A stretch of DNA of 40,175 nt, taken from assembly GCA_041082215.1 (NCBI GenBank), contig JBDOIF010000111.1, positions 62,001-102,175 of the forward strand, written 5' to 3'. Position numbers: made by a program. This document shows, piece after piece, positions 11,701 through 17,700 of the stretch (position 1 is its first letter; each line of letters starts with the position of its first letter). This DNA comes from Anaerolineae bacterium. GTDB lineage: Bacteria > Chloroflexota > Anaerolineae > B4-G1 > DUEL01.

Positions 11701-14700
11701 ACGTAGAAGTAGATGCCGTCGGGGTCGTCCGTCTGTTCTCTCGTGGCAGTCAACCGCCGCAAACATTCCCGTAGCTTCATCCCTTAACCTCCTCGAGGAA
11801 TCGAACGACCCGCTCCAGGACCTCCAGAGGAAGCAGCGAGTCGGTTTGCACTCTCAGGTCGGCGTGGGCGTGGGCGTGGGCCAGCCGCTTTTCCACCTCT
11901 GCCCACCATTGTGCGGGCAGTTTCTGCCCCAGGCGGCGCTGGGCTGTCTCGCGGGAGACCTCCAGGAAGATCAGGATGTCGGGGCGGGCAATCCGTCGCC
12001 ACATCGCCGGCACGTAAGAATGCTCCTGCGCCACCTCACGGGCGCGGACCCCTCGGGCGCGCAGGCCGGCGACGAGCGTGCTCTTCCCCGCCCCGCACGG
12101 GCCGACGACCCCCACCAGCGGGCCACCGCCTACTGTCTGCGCTTTTTCCTCCGCAGCCGATCCACCCAGCCGCGAAGGCCCTGCTCCGGAGCCGGGCATC
12201 TTTCTTCCCCCACATTCATCCGGTTGAGACAGGCAAGGGCCTCCAGTGTGGCGAACACCACGATCTGATCCCCTCCCTGCAACACCAGACTTCCAGCCGG
12301 ATGGAAGTCAACCCCTTCGGAGCCCCGGTGAAGGATGATCGAAAGGTCCAGCTCCTGCTCCACCTCTTCCACCCGCTTTCCTGCCAGCGACGATCCGGGG
12401 GCCACCACCACCCGGCTGACGTTCAGCAACACATCGTCCACATAGAAGGAGTACTCGATCGCAGCACGAGTGGCGGCAGCGGCAAAGGCAGGAGCGGCCA
12501 GCGCCGAGGTGCTGAAAGCGGTCTGGATGCCGAAACCCCGGCGGACCCGTTCCGCCAGTTGCTGATCGAACATCCGCATCACAACCTTCACCTGCGGGTT
12601 AAGGTCCCGGGCCTCCAGGGCGATCTCCAGGTTGGTCAGGTCGCTCTCCGTGCACGCCACCACGGCCGAGGCCACCCCGACCCCTGCCTTCTGCAGGAGG
12701 TCCCGGTTACGGGCATCTCCGATCAGCACAGGTACTCCTTCCTGGCGGACACGGTTCACAAAGAGCGCTTCCGGGTCCTGCTCGATGCCCACCACTTCCT
12801 GCTCCATCCTGAGCAGTTCAAGGGTAACCCGGTAGCCCACCTTGCCCATCCCGCAGACAACAACATGGTTTCGGTAAGTTGACGCCAGGGCCACCTGCCA
12901 GGCCTCCCTTCGTTCATGTCGGTTGAAGAGGGCGGTACCAAACCTCACCACCCCGTTGACGACCAGTACACCTCCCAGGATCGGCCACAGGACGAAGACC
13001 GCCTGGGCCAAAGGGTGGAAAGGATAGTCCCCCACCACCTCAAAGAACATCAGATTGAGAACGATGTAGAAAGCCGCGTCCCAGCGGAGGGGGTGAGCAG
13101 GGTCACAGGTGAGGCAGAGGATCAGGGTGCCGAGGAGGAGCAGGAGGATAAAGATGAGGAGAGTATGACGGAACTGGCCGATCAGGACGCGGGTATCCCG
13201 CCAGTAGGCGCGAGCGGCTCGCCGGACCTGCCGGAGCTTCTTCTCTCTATCCGAACTGCCCGGCTGTAGAAGCCCGACCGGGTTTCCCCCCCGTCCCTGT
13301 GTCCTTTCCATAAGCTGAAGCTCAGGGCTCGGGGGGGCATCCCCGGGCCTCCCACTCCCTCCACTCCTCCTCCATCCGCATCTCGGCCGACACCCACTCC
13401 CCATGGACGCGGCGCACCAGATAGCTGGAGACGCAGTCATGCCACTCCGCGTGGGGGCAGCTCCAGCAGCGGTATCCGACCCGGACGCACCAGATCTGCT
13501 CCACTCCGGCTGTCTCGTCCTCGGGCAGCAGGTCGGCTTTGCGGGCGGAGAGGATATAGGGCTGCTCCTCGGAGGGAAAGGAGGCCAGCACCGCCTCTCT
13601 GGCCTCCCTGGGCAAAGAGGAACAGGCGACGAGAAAGACCAGCAGCAACAGACCCCCGCCGCAGCAAATCGAACGGCCCTTCATCACACCACCCCTCCAC
13701 TATGGAGTATAGACCGACAGGGTGAAGCTGTCAATCTTGAGGGGTGTATTTCAATTTCGGGGCGAGTAGTCCTCCCGCTCGCCGGTGGATCGCGAATCCC
13801 ACGAATGGCCCGAATACAGCGAACACGAATACAGCGAACAGGAGGGATCCCTGCTCCATTCGCGGTATTCGTTTCCATTCGCGCCATTCGTGTTTCCCCA
13901 GGTCCAGCCCGGGCCAGGGGTATCTCGCCCCCCAACTGAAATACACCTATGGTGAACTTCAGCCTTTTGTGGTACAATGAAATTCAGCCCGATCGAGGAG
14001 GTTTAGAATGCGAAAGACCTGGTTCCCGCTGGCTGTGGGGGCCTTGCTGATGATGGCTGTCGGGTGTGGTGGTGGGCAGACCACTCCTACCAGCAATGTC
14101 CCCACGCTGGAGACCACTGCCACGGCAGAGGCCTCGCCCCCGCCGACAAGCTCGCCCGGGCAGGCCGCCTGTCGGGCCGTCTCCCCCGTCGGCTATCCCG
14201 TTGACGACGTTCCCCCGGTCACCGACCAGGATTGGTCCATCGGCCCCGCCGACGCGCCGGTCACTCTGATCGAGTACGCGGACTTCCAGTGACCGGGCTG
14301 CGCAGGGATGCATCCCCTGCTGGCGCGTCTGGTAGACGTGCACGGAGACAATCTGCGGTTCGTATACCGGCACTTTCCGTTGAGCTTTCACGATAAATCC
14401 ATGATCACCGCCGAGGCAGCAGAGGCCGCCGGGGCCCAGGGCCACTTCTGGGAAATGCACGATCTGCTGTACGAACGATACCAGGAATGGATCCAGTTCT
14501 CCGCTGACCAGATGCCTCAGGTACTGGCCGGCTACGCCCGGGAGCTTGGGCTGGACGTGGACCGATTTATGCGGGACCTGGAGAACCATACGTTCCAGGA
14601 GAAGGCGCAGGCCCAATACGAGGAGGCGGTGAGGTTGCAACTGCCCGGCACCCCCACTTTCATCGTCAACGGTCGAATGTATCCCGCCGACCAGTGGGGT

Positions 14701-17700
14701 CTTTCCTATCTGGGCGTGGACGCTTTCATCCGGCTGGCGACGCTGAAGCAGTACGACGCCCCACCGCCCCAGGTGATCGAGCCTGGAAAGCAGTACCGGG
14801 CCACCATCCGCACGGCGAAAGGGGACATCGTGATCGAACTCTACGCCGACCAGGCACCGGTCAACGTCAACAGCTTTGTCTTCCTGGCCCGGGATGGGTG
14901 GTACGACGGCATTATCTTCCACCGCGTCATCCCGGAGTTCGTCGCCCAATCCGGCGACCCCACCGGCACAGGGGCTGGCGGGCCGGGCTATCAGTGCGAC
15001 GATGAGATCGGCGGGCTGTCGTTCGATCAGGCCGGCATCGTGGGGATCGCCAACGCTGGCCCCAACACCGGCGGCAGTCAGTTCTTCATCACCCTTTCCC
15101 CTCAGCCTGGCCTGGACGGGCGCTATACGATCATCGGCAAGGTGGTGAAGGGGATGGACGTGCTCCAGAGCCTTGCCCCCCGCGATCCCGGCGACCCGGA
15201 AGCTCCGGCCGGGGACGTGATCGAGACCATCCTCATCGAAGAACAATGACGGAGATCGAGGCAGGCCCAGGAGGACTGTTGGGACCAGAGGGGAGCGGGA
15301 GGGTGGGGGCGTCCTCCCCTCCCTCCCTCCGCCAGCTCTTAGGGCTGGCAGGGGCAGTGGTGGGGCTATCTGTGGCCTTCGCCTCCTGTGTCTGCGGCCC
15401 TGCGATGACCGTGCTGGTTGAGCTGGGCAGCGAGATCGCTCTGGACGAGATGGCCGTCCAGCAGACGCTGGCTCTGTCGGTGCTCGGAGGCGGACTGGGG
15501 CTGGCTGTGGCGCTGGAGGGCTGGCGGGTCTGGCAAAGACGTCCCTCTCCCCCCTTCCACCCTCAAAGGACCTGGGTGCTGTGGCTGATCCTTCTGCCCC
15601 TCCTGATGACCGGCTTCCTGGTCTCCACGATGGACCTGGCCCCTGCATACCTCCTCCCCTTCATCAATACCCTTACAATGTTGCTGTTGCCAGCCCTGGT
15701 CCTCGGTATGGTGGGGCGGGCGCTGGGCGGAGCCGGCGGAAGCTGGCGGGATGTGCTGGGAGGGGTGGTAAGCGGTGCCTCTCTGGGCACCGGCCTGGCC
15801 GTCGTCCTCGAGATCGGCCTGCTGGCCTTTCTCGTCGCTGGCGCGCTGGTGATGGGGCTGCTCCCTGCGGATTTGACCAGCCTGGAGTCGTGGGAAGGGC
15901 AGCTCAATGACCCCAGCCTCCTCTACGATCCTGAAACCCTGCTTGAGCTCCTCAGCCCGACTGTGATCGCGGCGGTCTTCCTCTTCGTCGCCGTGCTGAC
16001 CCCCCTGGCGGAGGAGATGACGAAGACCCTGGGAGTGGGGATTGCGGGGGCGTGGCTGCGCCCTGCCCCCGCGCGCGCCTTTCTGTTGGGGGCAGCCTCC
16101 GGGGCGGGGTTTGCCCTGGCGGAGAACCTGCTGAACGGCGCCATCATCGGCAGCCTGTGGGGGCCGGGGACCCTGAGCCGGCTGGCGGCGACGCTGATGC
16201 ACTGCGCTACCGGCGGGCTGATGGGCTGGGGCTGGGGAGAGCTATGGGGTGGGAAACACCCGTGGCGGCTGGTGTTGAGCTTCACCGGGGCGGTGATGGT
16301 CCACGGAGTGTGGAACGGCCTGGCCGTAGGGGCCGCTGTTGGAGGGCTGATGGCCTCCGCCAGTGAGGCCGATCCGGCTCAGGCCGCCGCTGCTGGCCTG
16401 GCGGTGGCGGTGCTGGTGGTCCTGCTGATGCTGATCGCTATCGCAGCTCTGGTCGGGATCGTGTGGGCAGCGCGGAGGTTGGGACAGAAGACCGTCTAAC
16501 GGCCAACTCCGCGCGCTACCTCCTGCTCCCACCGCTCCACTGCCCCCTCCAGGTTGTACTGCTGCTGCACGAACCGTCGGCCTGCCTGTCCCAGCCGTTC
16601 CCGCTCCGCTGGCTCCTCCAGCAGCCGCACCACCGCTTCGGCGAAACTCGCCGGGTCGTCTGCCACCAGCAGATGTTCCCCGGGCACCCCCCCCACCCCG
16701 TGGTTGCTCACCGACGTCGCCACCACCGGCACCCCCATCGCCAGCGCGTCCACCACCTTCTGCAACAGCCCGCCGGCCACCAGAAGCGGCGAGACAAAGA
16801 CCGCCGCCGCCCGATACCACGGGGCCAGGTCCTCCACAAAACCAGAGACAAAGACCCGCTCCCCGTCGTGGAGGGCCTGAACCTCCGGTGGGGGGCCATA
16901 CCCCACCACGTAGAAGCGAGCCTGGGCGACCCGCGCCACCACCTGTGGCCACACCTCCTCCACGAACCACCGCACCCCCTGCACGTTGAAGCTCCGGTAC
17001 ATCGCCCCCACGAACAGCACGTTCGGTCCCGGAGGAACGGCAGGCGGGACCGATTCGTCGGCGGAGAAGGCGGGAGCCAGCGGCAGGACGAGGACAGGAC
17101 GCGGGCGGCAGTGGGGGGCCAGCAGCCGCCGGTCCCCCTCAGAGATGGCACAGATCAGGTCGTAGCGGCGGCAGAGCCAATATTCGACGGGGCGCAACAG
17201 GCGGGAAAGGACCAGGAGCCCAGCCCGGCTCGGGCCGGGCCGCCTGGCTGCCTGCTGCTCCAGCAGAAACCAGTTGACGTCCAGTGGGCGGAAAGAGGAG
17301 AAGGGCTGACGCAGCCCCAGGAGAGCAAAGGCCGTCTGCGTTACCTCTACGTGCAACAGGTCGGGCTGCACCTCCCGCAGCAAGCGGGCAGCAGCCCGTC
17401 GCAGGGCCAGGTAGGAGCGAATGAAGGCCACCGGAAAGGGGCCGGGCAGGGCCCGGTGGTGGGGGACCGTTACGATCCGCTCGCAGTAAGGGACGGTCTC
17501 CCCCACCAGTTCCGCCTCTTCCCGTCGCAGGCGGGCCACCAGGAAGAGGCGATGGCCCCGCCGGTGAAGGGATTCTATAAACCGAAAAACCGCCCGCCCC
17601 CCGGCGTGGCCCACCGAAGGGGCGGGAAACTCTTTGTAGACGATCAGAACCCGTGCCACACCCCTATTCCTCCACCGGCACGACGATGATCTCCGGCCGG

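Follow-up and report, generated by a model that had tools for sequence, protein, structure and literature searches.

A predicted selenocysteine-containing DsbA-like/cyclophilin fusion lipoprotein with two hairpins downstream of its in-frame UGA

The window, that is, the whole stretch of 40,175 nucleotides analysed here, carries a gene whose single internal TGA is well supported, on comparative sequence grounds, as a selenocysteine (Sec) codon. Its predicted product is a lipoprotein in which a DsbA-like domain is joined to a cyclophilin. An earlier note on this DNA had proposed such a Sec-containing fusion lipoprotein together with a family-level switch between Sec and Cys. The first proposal is borne out by a conserved codon column, covarying hairpins linked to the TGA, a Sec machinery, and a lipobox; the second is not, as Sec forms were found in families f1, f2, and seven others, and Cys forms occur within f1 and f2. 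Three features by which bacterial selenoprotein genes are recognized were found: a UGA that aligns, with its flanks, to a Cys codon, a downstream stem-loop, and a complete machinery. The explanation that we consider highly probable is that of a selenoprotein gene with Sec decoding directed by two hairpins at the UGA, encoding a lipid-anchored DsbA-like/cyclophilin foldase, and with the Sec form as the old one.

Gene structure and predicted product

The features of the gene and of its neighbor are listed in Table 1. The internal TGA is the only one in the plus-strand frame and lies at contig positions 76290–76292, exactly where the earlier note had placed it; it encodes residue 95, in the motif YADFQ-U-PGC. 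Orthologues were collected from an order sample of 121 genomes, which gave 90 order-level loci distributed over families f1, f2, and f3, and from a class sample that added 21 loci, making 111 in all. The full-length frame is kept in the 90 order-level and the 21 class-level loci.

Table 1. Coordinates of the gene, its candidate RNA elements, and the conserved downstream gene (window positions).
Feature	Positions	Strand	Basis or remark
Shine-Dalgarno-like GAGGAGG, 6 nt before ATG	13995–14001	+	read from sequence
Whole gene	14008–15249	+	413 codons and a TGA stop; Sec predicted at a single internal UGA
Lipoprotein signal peptide (MRK..., hydrophobic core, lipobox A-V-G-C)	14008–14067	+	predicted; Cys20 codon 14065–14067
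Cys55 codon, N-terminal arm, proposed disulfide partner of Cys330	14170–14172	+	co-occurrence
DsbA-like/Thioredoxin_4 domain (residues 74–226), U95-P-G-C98 and cis-Pro loop T215-P216	14227–14685	+	Pfam
In-frame UGA, putative selenocysteine 95, first residue of UxxC	14290–14292	+	column conservation among orthologues
Hairpin 1: 6-bp stem, 7-nt loop, starts 9 nt past UGA, -9.7 kcal/mol	14302–14320	+	covariation
Hairpin 2: 8-bp stem, triloop GGU (14331–14333) 38 nt past the UGA, -10.5 kcal/mol	14323–14341	+	candidate SECIS
Cyclophilin-type PPIase domain (residues 266–400)	14803–15207	+	Pfam 1.7e-40; PDB cyclophilins 1e-39
Cys330 codon, cyclophilin domain, proposed disulfide partner of Cys55	14995–14997	+	co-occurrence
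Downstream gene: 417-aa polytopic PrsW-family-like membrane protease, ATG overlaps stop (ATGA)	15246–16499	+	conserved neighbor

The product is a lipoprotein by prediction, with Cys20 as the predicted lipidation site. A lipobox was detected in 87 of the 90 orthologous loci, and the genome encodes both Lgt (258 bits) and LspA (133 bits). Once exported, the protein would be tethered to the outside of the cytoplasmic membrane by a lipid anchor at Cys20, with a flexible Thr/Pro-rich linker leading to the DsbA/BdbD-type oxidoreductase domain and its predicted active site.

In the public gene calls, the TGA forms are given as products of 301–317 aa; P0003, for example, corresponds to 14308–15249. 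These calls are consistent with the TGA being a real stop in a split or dead gene from which only the downstream part is made (313 aa, from the ATG at 14308), a reading that we regard as very improbable. Such a product would be devoid of the signal peptide, of the first beta strand, and of the whole UxxC of its own domain. Moreover, the 94 codons upstream of the TGA are conserved in frame, and the motif EY[AS]DFQ is present in all the order loci; together with the lipobox, this motif indicates that translation runs through the N-terminal part in the same frame. Also at odds with a stop are the restriction of the TGA to a single column in many families and the structured RNA tied to the TGA state, both described below.

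Distribution of Sec and Cys at the conserved column

At one and the same column, 51 of the 111 loci have TGA and 60 have TGC or TGT. The TGA loci comprise 34 of the 90 order-level orthologues and 17 loci (17 genomes) of seven further families of the class; they span nine families in total and contain no other in-frame TGA or stop. In all 56 Cys orthologues examined, the TGA aligns with the first Cys of CxxC, in keeping with the alignment to Cys reported before. The earlier note had, on the other hand, confined the TGA copies to f1, which does not hold: besides 19 of the 26 f1 genomes, Sec copies are found in 14 of the 48 f2 genomes and in the 17 genomes of the other seven families. Five f1 loci and 26 f2 loci, in turn, have Cys, and their genomes retain SelA. 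Family f3 is all-Cys, with no TGA among the 25 copies examined and no in-frame stop in about 16 further f3 matches; SelA scored over the cut-off in 0 of 47 cases in this family.

This distribution over families suggests an old Sec form, many scattered Cys replacements, and one family without the Sec trait. At least 12–15 changes between Sec and Cys are needed on the gene tree, and a strain about 97% identical reads TGT with both hairpins intact. As part of the best explanation, we propose an old Sec form in the class, from which the Cys forms would have been derived repeatedly, by single TGA-to-TGY changes. Two independent DNA studies yielded contigs that retain the TGA. An RNA-library contig, which is not proof of transcription, covers 14214–14367 with 0 differences and bridges the TGA.

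Sec machinery and decoding of the UGA

As the earlier note had listed, tRNA-Sec, SelA, SelB, and SelD are all present in the genome. The tRNA-Sec scored 69.6 bits in Rfam and was called tRNA-SeC, with the anticodon tca, by ARAGORN; SelB (350 bits), SelA (565 bits), and SelD (330 bits) were all above their cut-offs. SelB and tRNA-Sec would decode the UGA as Sec, steered by an mRNA element located just 3' of it.

Cys is acceptable at this site, as the 60 Cys homologues attest, and the UGA might accordingly be read through as Cys or Trp, by near-cognate suppression or under a reassigned code. We judge this highly unlikely. TGA also serves as the stop of this gene (15247–15249), overlapped by the start of the next one, which argues that the codon is not reassigned. 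Besides the dedicated machinery, the genome has five or more further genes in which a UGA occupies a known Sec site, and a conserved pair of hairpins would be unnecessary for simple suppression. The lack of TGA in f3, the family in which SelA was not found, also speaks against this reading.

Among these other genes are those for FdhA, FlpD/MvhD, an AhpC/TSA protein, thioredoxin, and SelD, the last of which has a UGA of its own. Each has, 19–33 nt past the UGA, a G-first triloop on a stem of 7 bp or more. Four of these five genes came from a scan that required a hairpin, which makes the comparison partly circular; SelD and the gene described here were found independently of that scan.

Two hairpins downstream of the UGA

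A hairpin following the UGA had been mentioned in the earlier note; there are in fact two in tandem, both predicted by RNAalifold. The covariation score was 0.414, compared with 0.171 for shuffles (0 of 500 reached 0.414) and no more than 0.172 for slid controls. The single-sequence fold was no more stable than its shuffles (z = -0.29), and a search of Rfam gave no match.

Hairpin 2, the distal one, is 96.3% paired, with changes on both sides at five of its eight pairs and near-invariant CUG-loop-AG flanks. Its base pairing is maintained across changes of the encoded residues (R/F/Y/S paired with DV/ET/DT). It is kept, with at least seven of the eight pairs, in 33 of the 34 Sec copies, the exception being a second copy (L050) in the genome G054, which has neither hairpin. 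Among the Cys copies, it is kept in 3/5 of f1, 5/26 of f2, and 0/25 of f3, and some of these copies retain both hairpins. In 11 of the 17 Sec copies of the other families, the register of hairpin 2 is identical, which argues for a single origin of the Sec form. Judged by sequence, hairpin 2, with its G-first triloop, is most likely the SECIS bound by SelB, and hairpin 1 most likely fills and compacts the unusually long spacing of 38 nt.

Hairpin 1 could instead be the SelB-binding SECIS, with Sec still decoded and hairpin 2 serving for pausing, mRNA stability, or a similar role. Its start lies close to the canonical distance of roughly 10 nt, and the spacing between the UGA and the hairpin in E. 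coli fdhF is near to it. It also has compensatory changes in five of eight pairs and, in many orthologues, a loop G at the second position. Nevertheless, across the 34 Sec copies hairpin 1 is just 79% paired and drifts in register, in contrast to the pairing and flanks of hairpin 2. In the same genome, FdhA, FlpD, Prx, and Trx each have a single hairpin, and the one similar to these is hairpin 2; SelD, which likewise has a proximal and a distal hairpin, carries the G-first triloop on the distal one. An assignment of the SECIS to hairpin 1 thus appears unlikely.

The bacterial SECIS consensus, as given in the available text of PMC13188914, comprises a UGA-to-loop distance of 16–37 nt, an apical loop of 3–9 nt, an upper stem of 4–16 bp, a G within the first two positions of the loop, and an MFE of at most -7.5 kcal/mol. 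Hairpin 2 lies within the loop, stem, G, and energy limits of that text. The spacing limit is missed by hairpin 2 (38 nt) and by hairpin 1 (15 nt), although the authors' counting convention may differ; hairpin 1 of this genome also has no G in the first two loop positions, and neither hairpin satisfies all of the constraints given there.

A broader reading, which we put forward only tentatively, is that the gene represents an ancient, class-wide extracytoplasmic selenoprotein foldase with a distinct two-hairpin SECIS, in which SelB would bind the distal triloop outside the consensus spacing, with the proximal hairpin as a spacer and the same layout in SelD, and with frequent, ongoing replacement of Sec by Cys. 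Such replacement is called rare in bacteria in the available part of a recent review. If the reading is true, this family shows that it can be frequent and ongoing, and some of the Cys copies would carry a "fossil" SECIS.

Redox and cyclophilin domains

With the TGA read as a residue, the Pfam ranges reported in the earlier note were reproduced exactly. Thioredoxin_4 (PF13462) matched residues 74–226 (6.6e-23, 82.1 bits against a cut-off of 23.2) and DSBA (PF01323) residues 86–226 (2e-15, 57.5 bits against 25.6), with the U inside the domain span. In the cis-Pro loop, T215 is present in 110 and P216 in all of the 111 sequences. The AF2 model contains the helical insertion of the thioredoxin fold, with helices 131–209 between strands 116–122 and 217–220 (pLDDT >90). 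The redox domain would cycle through a selenenylsulfide.

Pro_isomerase (PF00160) matched residues 266–400 with 139.3 bits, against a cut-off of 21.7. The Arg306 of FHR, F311, Q314, Q358, and F360 are all present in the protein; catalytic and substrate-site roles of these positions are known from human cyclophilin A. Of the 111 family members, just 53 keep the catalytic Arg of FHR, among them none of the 25 from f3, and the catalytic positions are substituted in f3 and in part of f2. The 111 sequences include 88 with both Cys55 and Cys330 and 15 with neither, and strands 55–57 and 328–330 both exist in the structure model; this suggests that a Cys55–Cys330 disulfide probably staples the cyclophilin domain to the N-terminal arm. 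Fused in this way, the two domains may, as their content suggests, work together as one foldase for newly exported proteins.

Neither DsbB nor VKOR was detected in this genome (96% complete) or in any of 25 other f1 genomes, and an oxidase role is not established. A DsbD_TM/CcdA homologue is present, as would suit a reductase or isomerase fed by a CcdA/DsbD-type membrane protein. Nevertheless, the nearest solved relatives of the domain are of the MdbA/BdbD type, which are oxidases, VKOR is present in 12 of the 17 class-sample genomes with the Sec form, and the neighboring gene encodes a PrsW-like protease rather than CcdA or a cytochrome-maturation protein. A role as reductase or isomerase, instead of disulfide-forming oxidase, appears fairly unlikely. 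The downstream gene is syntenic in 25 of the 30 loci having flanks. Its product had no Pfam or NCBIfam match and contains conserved EExxK, FALxEN, MHC, and HxxWN motifs; its atlas neighbors are PrsW-family clusters (score 0.97).

Comparison with known systems

DsbA-like UxxC selenoproteins are a class already predicted, as the earlier note had mentioned and as the available texts of PMC1088965 and PMC13188914 confirm, while the cyclophilin fusion, the two-hairpin element, and the repeated turnover from Sec to Cys appear undescribed. The predicted family ("DsbA-like protein form 1," PF01323), as described in those texts, likewise has a DsbA fold, Sec as the first residue of UxxC, and widespread Cys homologues; by the same description, the lipoprotein nature and the cyclophilin fusion set the present protein apart. 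The DsbA-like family from the Sargasso Sea is assigned to COG2761 in the available text of PMC1088965 and differs, going by that description, in that the best scores here were with Thioredoxin_4 and BdbD/MdbA-type structures.

The Rcas_1661 family (seleno)lipoprotein NF041057, which appears as a "DsbG-like protein" in the available part of a 2026 review (PMC13188914), is also a thioredoxin-fold lipoprotein of Chloroflexota with UxxC or CxxC, and its model aligns with residues 27–225. Membership was rejected, as the score was 92.9 bits (86.6 in the genome search) against a cut-off of 190. NF041057 is a single-domain model of 247 positions, with no cyclophilin.

By sequence, the nearest solved structures are the actinobacterial DsbA/MdbA 4pwp/4pwo (2.5e-13) and BdbD of Bacillus subtilis (3eu3, 7e-10). 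They share with the redox domain a CPxC-type motif and the T-P cis-Pro loop but have Cys instead of Sec and no PPIase domain. Their reoxidizing partners are BdbC or VKOR, and partners of this DsbB/VKOR type were not found in this genome. Lipoprotein cyclophilins occur in Gram-positive bacteria, SlrA being an example. The cyclophilin domain shares with cyclophilin-type PPIases the PF00160 match and the FHR/F/Q/Q/F positions, with target TM-scores of 0.7–0.8 in the fold matches, and differs from them in its fusion to a redox domain. No two-domain analogue was found among the 50 PDB matches listed (query-normalized TM-score at most 0.34).

Finally, the candidate element has in common with the bSECISearch-type consensus, as far as the available text defines it, a stem-loop directly 3' of the UGA within the coding region, a stem of 8 bp whose small apical loop begins with G-G/U, and a folding energy lower than -7.5 kcal/mol; it differs from it in the spacing of hairpin 2 (38 versus 16–37 nt) and in the second, proximal hairpin that lies between the UGA and hairpin 2.

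Reading frame, selenocysteine machinery and conservation of the in-frame TGA

Comparison of its sequence across relatives indicates that the target gene is very probably a real selenoprotein gene. Apart from one internal TGA, its frame runs uninterrupted to its own stop, which is also a TGA (15247–15249). When the internal codon was read as a residue, Pfam placed Thioredoxin_4 at residues 74–226 (6.6e-23), DSBA at 86–226 (2e-15) and Pro_isomerase at 266–400 (1.7e-40), the TGA being residue 95 and the first position of YADFQ-U-PGC. The assembly to which the window (C78:62001–102175) belongs, of 3.53 Mb and 96% complete, encodes tRNA-Sec (69.6 bits with Rfam; tRNA-SeC with anticodon tca by ARAGORN), SelA (565 bits), SelB (350 bits) and SelD (330 bits), and the SelD gene itself has an in-frame TGA. 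What the earlier note had reported of the frame, the domains, the position of U, tRNA-Sec, SelA, SelB and SelD was all borne out. Upstream of the gene, a promoter scan detected no sigma-70-like site on the + strand. The coordinates of the features discussed here are collected in the table.

Features of the target locus and of the other candidate selenoprotein genes of the genome (window positions unless a contig, C, is named)
Feature	Position	Strand	Remarks
TrkA_N + TrkA_C membrane protein	12130–13440	−	upstream of target; no clear link to it
TGGTACAAT motif	13970–13978		likeness to an extended −10 box, by eye only
GAGGAGG motif		+	6 nt 5' of the target's ATG; read from sequence
Target gene	14008–15249	+	413 codons in one frame; sole interruption TGA 14290–14292
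Cys55 codon	14170–14172	+	N-terminal arm
Hairpin 1	14302–14320	+	begins 9 nt past UGA; 79% paired; register drifts
Hairpin 2	14323–14341	+	8-bp stem; triloop GGA, GGU, GUU or GGC across copies; 96.3% paired
Cys330 codon	14995–14997	+	cyclophilin domain
Downstream gene	15246–16499	+	417-aa polytopic membrane protein; ATG overlaps target's stop (ATGA)
GT4-type glycosyltransferase	16496–17932	−	downstream flank; no clear link to target
FdhA-type molybdopterin enzyme	C83:46277–46279	−	CARL-U-H; triloop GUC; 19 nt from UGA to loop
FlpD/MvhD protein	C100:77713–77715	−	triloop GGA; 23 nt from UGA to loop
AhpC/TSA protein	C24:1043–1045	+	triloop GUG; 21 nt from UGA to loop
Thioredoxin	C95:60030–60032	+	U-SGC; triloop GUG; 27 nt from UGA to loop
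SelD	C139		proximal hairpin, then 7-bp stem with triloop GUC, 33 nt downstream of UGA

In the order, 121 genomes were searched and 90 orthologous loci were read (30 from the search and 60 fetched), leaving out about 16 matches without in-frame stops in the family f3 and three partial matches. All 90 share the motif [DE]F[QE]-x-x-x-C, whose variable first position is encoded by TGA in 34 loci and by TGC or TGT in 56; no TGA occurs elsewhere in frame in any of them. The family of the window genome, f1, contributes 20 TGA and 5 Cys loci (TGA copy in 19 of 26 genomes), f2 contributes 14 and 26 (14 of 48 genomes), and f3 has 25 Cys loci and no genome with a TGA copy. A wider sample, of 151 genomes across the class, gave full-length matches with a single TGA in 17, from seven further families (f5, f12, f16, f21, f27, f51 and f52), and the TGA column was identical in all 17 fetched loci. 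One sampled genome that carries the TGA form (G133) consists of a single closed contig. Contrary to the earlier note, TGA copies are thus not confined to f1, as the 14 loci of f2 and these seven families show.

Sequencing runs of two other studies also yielded contigs in which the TGA is retained. In a metatranscriptome library there is a 154-nt contig that spans the TGA codon and is identical to window 14214–14367; all of these sequences are assembled contigs, an RNA library may contain DNA, and coverage of the gene by this run is limited to 12 of 30 bins. In one f21 genome, a single locus (L130, G138:C16:13500–16530) holds a tandem pair of fusion genes, the first with TGA and the second with TGC.

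A conserved two-hairpin element follows the UGA

The 60 nt 3' of the TGA align without gaps across the 34 TGA copies of the order, and both hairpins were predicted by RNAalifold from these copies. In hairpin 2, the flanks CUG...AG are almost invariant, five of the eight pairs show changes on both sides, and one pair is seen as UA, AU, GC and CG. The covariation score of the whole structure was 0.414, against 0.171 for shuffles (0 of 500 reached the observed value) and at most 0.172 for slid partners. Since the encoded amino acids vary while the pairing is retained, it is the RNA that constrains the protein.

The decisive control for hairpin 2 is provided by the Cys copies. At least seven of its eight pairs are formed in 33 of the 34 TGA copies, versus three of five Cys copies in f1, five of 26 in f2 and none of 25 in f3, and the 60 nt fold with a mean energy of −23.8 kcal/mol in TGA copies as against −17.5 kcal/mol in Cys copies. 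Among the 17 TGA copies of the other families of the class, 11 have hairpin 2 in the same register and the remaining six have different hairpins. A second copy in one genome (L050, G054:C11) has TGA at the shared column and neither conserved hairpin; this paralogue may use another SECIS or may be decaying. The structural signal is visible in the comparative analysis only, not in a single-sequence fold: window 14280–14360 folded no more stably than its shuffles (z = −0.29). An Rfam scan of window 13500–15800, with E up to 10, returned no SECIS family and only chance microRNA-like matches.

In its loop, stem, G and folding energy (−10.5 kcal/mol), hairpin 2 agrees with the bacterial SECIS consensus given in a 2026 review (PMC13188914). 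The same review sets the distance from UGA to loop at 16–37 nt, and both hairpins lie outside this range, hairpin 2 at 38 nt and hairpin 1 at 15 nt. The genome was also scanned for in-frame TGAs in coding-like frames; in 21 of the 840 candidates, the target among them, a G-first triloop lies 12–45 nt downstream on a stem of 7 bp or more. A Pfam domain spans the U in all four of the FdhA, FlpD/MvhD, AhpC/TSA and thioredoxin genes, and the UGAs of these genes and of SelD are known Sec-type sites. The comparison of hairpins is partly circular, because these four genes were found through the hairpin criterion; SelD and the target gene were found independently of it. The SECIS of this lineage looks like a G-first triloop closing a stem of 7 bp or more, and hairpin 2 fits this description. 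The two longest spacings from UGA to loop are those of SelD and the target gene, the same two that have an intervening hairpin, and hairpin 1 would act as a folded spacer between the UGA and hairpin 2. A two-hairpin, slightly non-canonical SECIS is thus well supported for the target gene, and its conservation, with a spacing just beyond the consensus, suggests that a class of bacterial SECIS escapes the search rules now in use.

Repeated replacement of Sec by Cys

SelA was found over the cutoff in 24 of the 25 other f1 genomes, in 43 of 48 f2 genomes and in 0 of 47 f3 genomes; the remaining f1 genome is 76% complete and has a SelA fragment only. The all-Cys family is therefore the family without the Sec trait. 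The genomes that host Cys copies within f1 and f2 retain it.

Changes between Sec and Cys were counted on two gene trees, each inferred with the Sec/Cys column masked. In the order tree (88 sequences, two short rows being omitted), a fully supported branch parts f3 from f1 and f2, and the U/C label changes at least 12 times, with at least seven changes forced by well-supported branches. The tree of class and order together (109 rows) needs at least 15 changes, at least eight of them forced, and U is present in every major lineage but f3. Both trees are unrooted, so that they do not give the direction of change by themselves. The presence of the same hairpin in the same register in f1, f2, f5, f12, f16, f21 and f27 argues for a single origin of the Sec form. 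Eight Cys copies (L021, L027, L040, L068, L023, L067, L045 and L065) retain one or both hairpins. The clearest case of a Cys copy with its hairpins is a contig from a third study, about 96.6% identical to the window (43 differences in 1266 nt), in which T for A at 14292 turns TGA into TGT; both hairpins are intact, as there is no difference at 14293–14396. Such copies are a rare directional marker of Sec-to-Cys conversion.

We conclude that replacement of Sec by Cys has been repeated and is still under way. The 2026 review (PMC13188914) regards such replacement in bacteria as rare, with FdhA and SelD as the main documented cases. The evolutionary pattern is that of an old, class-wide Sec form with many recent reversions to Cys, which differs from the family-level Sec/Cys switch that the earlier note had proposed. 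The family amounts to a natural experiment, in which one enzyme occurs in many closely related Sec and Cys versions, some differing only between strains, and these natural variants make testable the long-standing question of what benefit Sec brings to a thiol oxidoreductase.

A predicted lipoprotein with redox and cyclophilin domains

The product begins with M-R-K, a hydrophobic stretch and A-V-G-C20, a lipoprotein signal. A lipobox was recognized in 87 of the 90 orthologues, and two of the remaining three are truncated where the retrieved sequence stops. Both Lgt and LspA are present in the genome. The AlphaFold2 model (28 sequences; mean pLDDT 84.8, pTM 0.77) has both domains confident and residues 1–51 disordered. 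By sequence, the nearest structures to the redox domain are the actinobacterial DsbA 4pwp/4pwo (2.5e-13) and BdbD 3eu3 (7e-10), and the C-terminal domain is nearest to cyclophilins (1e-39). Among the matches listed, a PDB fold search with the product gave single-domain cyclophilins only. The cis-Pro loop, T215-P216, is essentially invariant.

Cys55 and Cys330 are jointly present in 88 of 111 sequences, both replaced in 15, and discordant or gapped in eight. Because they are gained and lost together across these homologues, their distribution suggests a disulfide between domains, tying the N-terminal arm to the cyclophilin domain. The Arg of FHR and the following F, Q, Q and F, which we take to be the catalytic-type positions of cyclophilins, are all present in the window's protein. 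The Arg is retained by 53 of 111 sequences and by no f3 copy (0 of 25); every one of these 25 copies, like a large clade of f2 Cys copies, has other residues at this and the neighboring positions (residues 306, 311, 314 and 358; 14923–15081). Most Sec copies retain the catalytic-type positions, an association confounded by phylogeny. In the lineages lacking the Arg, the cyclophilin domain may serve in substrate binding only.

Redox partners and genomic neighborhood

Neither DsbB nor VKOR was found in the window's genome (96% complete), and a CcdA/DsbD-type protein is present. In the order, VKOR occurs in 0 of 25 f1, four of 48 f2 and 35 of 47 f3 genomes, the mirror image of SelA. That Sec dispenses with a reoxidizing partner was considered and rejected as a rule, since 12 of the 17 class-sample genomes with the Sec form have VKOR. 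The pattern within the order is for this reason a lineage effect, and the mirrored distribution probably reflects a split in lifestyle between lineages; Sec is generally no substitute for VKOR. The enzyme may be an oxidase, an isomerase or a reductase. Separately, a VKOR-family match of 78 bits in another genome (G238:C25:28736–29104, − strand) has one in-frame TGA and is possibly a Sec-containing VKOR.

The downstream gene is syntenic in 25 of the 30 loci with flanks and is a conserved neighbor in f1 and f2. Its product has no match in Pfam or NCBIfam; conserved EExxK, FALxEN, MHC and HxxWN motifs were recognized in it, and in the Atlas it lies closest to clusters of PrsW-family intramembrane proteases (score 0.97). 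A role as a DsbB-like redox partner was rejected for this protein, which has one conserved Cys only and PrsW-type protease motifs. The pairing of a foldase with a membrane protease suggests a module for quality control of envelope proteins.

Comparison with known selenoproteins

In public gene calls, the TGA forms are cut to 301–317 aa, and the signal peptide and active site are missing from the products. Public names for the Cys forms are 'peptidylprolyl isomerase [Anaerolineae bacterium]' or 'cyclophilin family PPIase/protein-disulfide isomerase'. Because the public calls are cut at the UGA, a widespread envelope foldase of Anaerolineae is mis-annotated.

As the earlier note had pointed out, DsbA-like selenoproteins are already a predicted class. 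UxxC forms are predicted from 2005 onward, with nine Sargasso Sea sequences in COG2761 (PMC1088965), followed in 2016 by 45 genes in 41 organisms (PMC5029168) and by 'DsbA-like protein form 1' in the 2026 list (PMC13188914). For Anaerolinea thermophila UNI-1, the 2016 study also records the Sec trait and a total of four selenoproteins (PMC5029168); these are unnamed in the supplement text searched, and the target gene may therefore already count there as 'DsbA-like'. Literature searches on Rcas_1661/NF041057, DsbA-cyclophilin fusion, Anaerolineae and Chloroflexi found no description of this cyclophilin fusion as a selenoprotein, and none of the words cyclophilin, peptidyl-prolyl, lipoprotein and Chloroflex occurs in the main text of the 2026 review (PMC13188914). 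The nearest curated model is NF041057, the Rcas_1661 (seleno)lipoprotein family listed as 'DsbG-like', of which the product is a relative and not a member, as it scores 92.9 bits against a cutoff of 190. The target gene is a new domain architecture within the known, predicted DsbA-like class.
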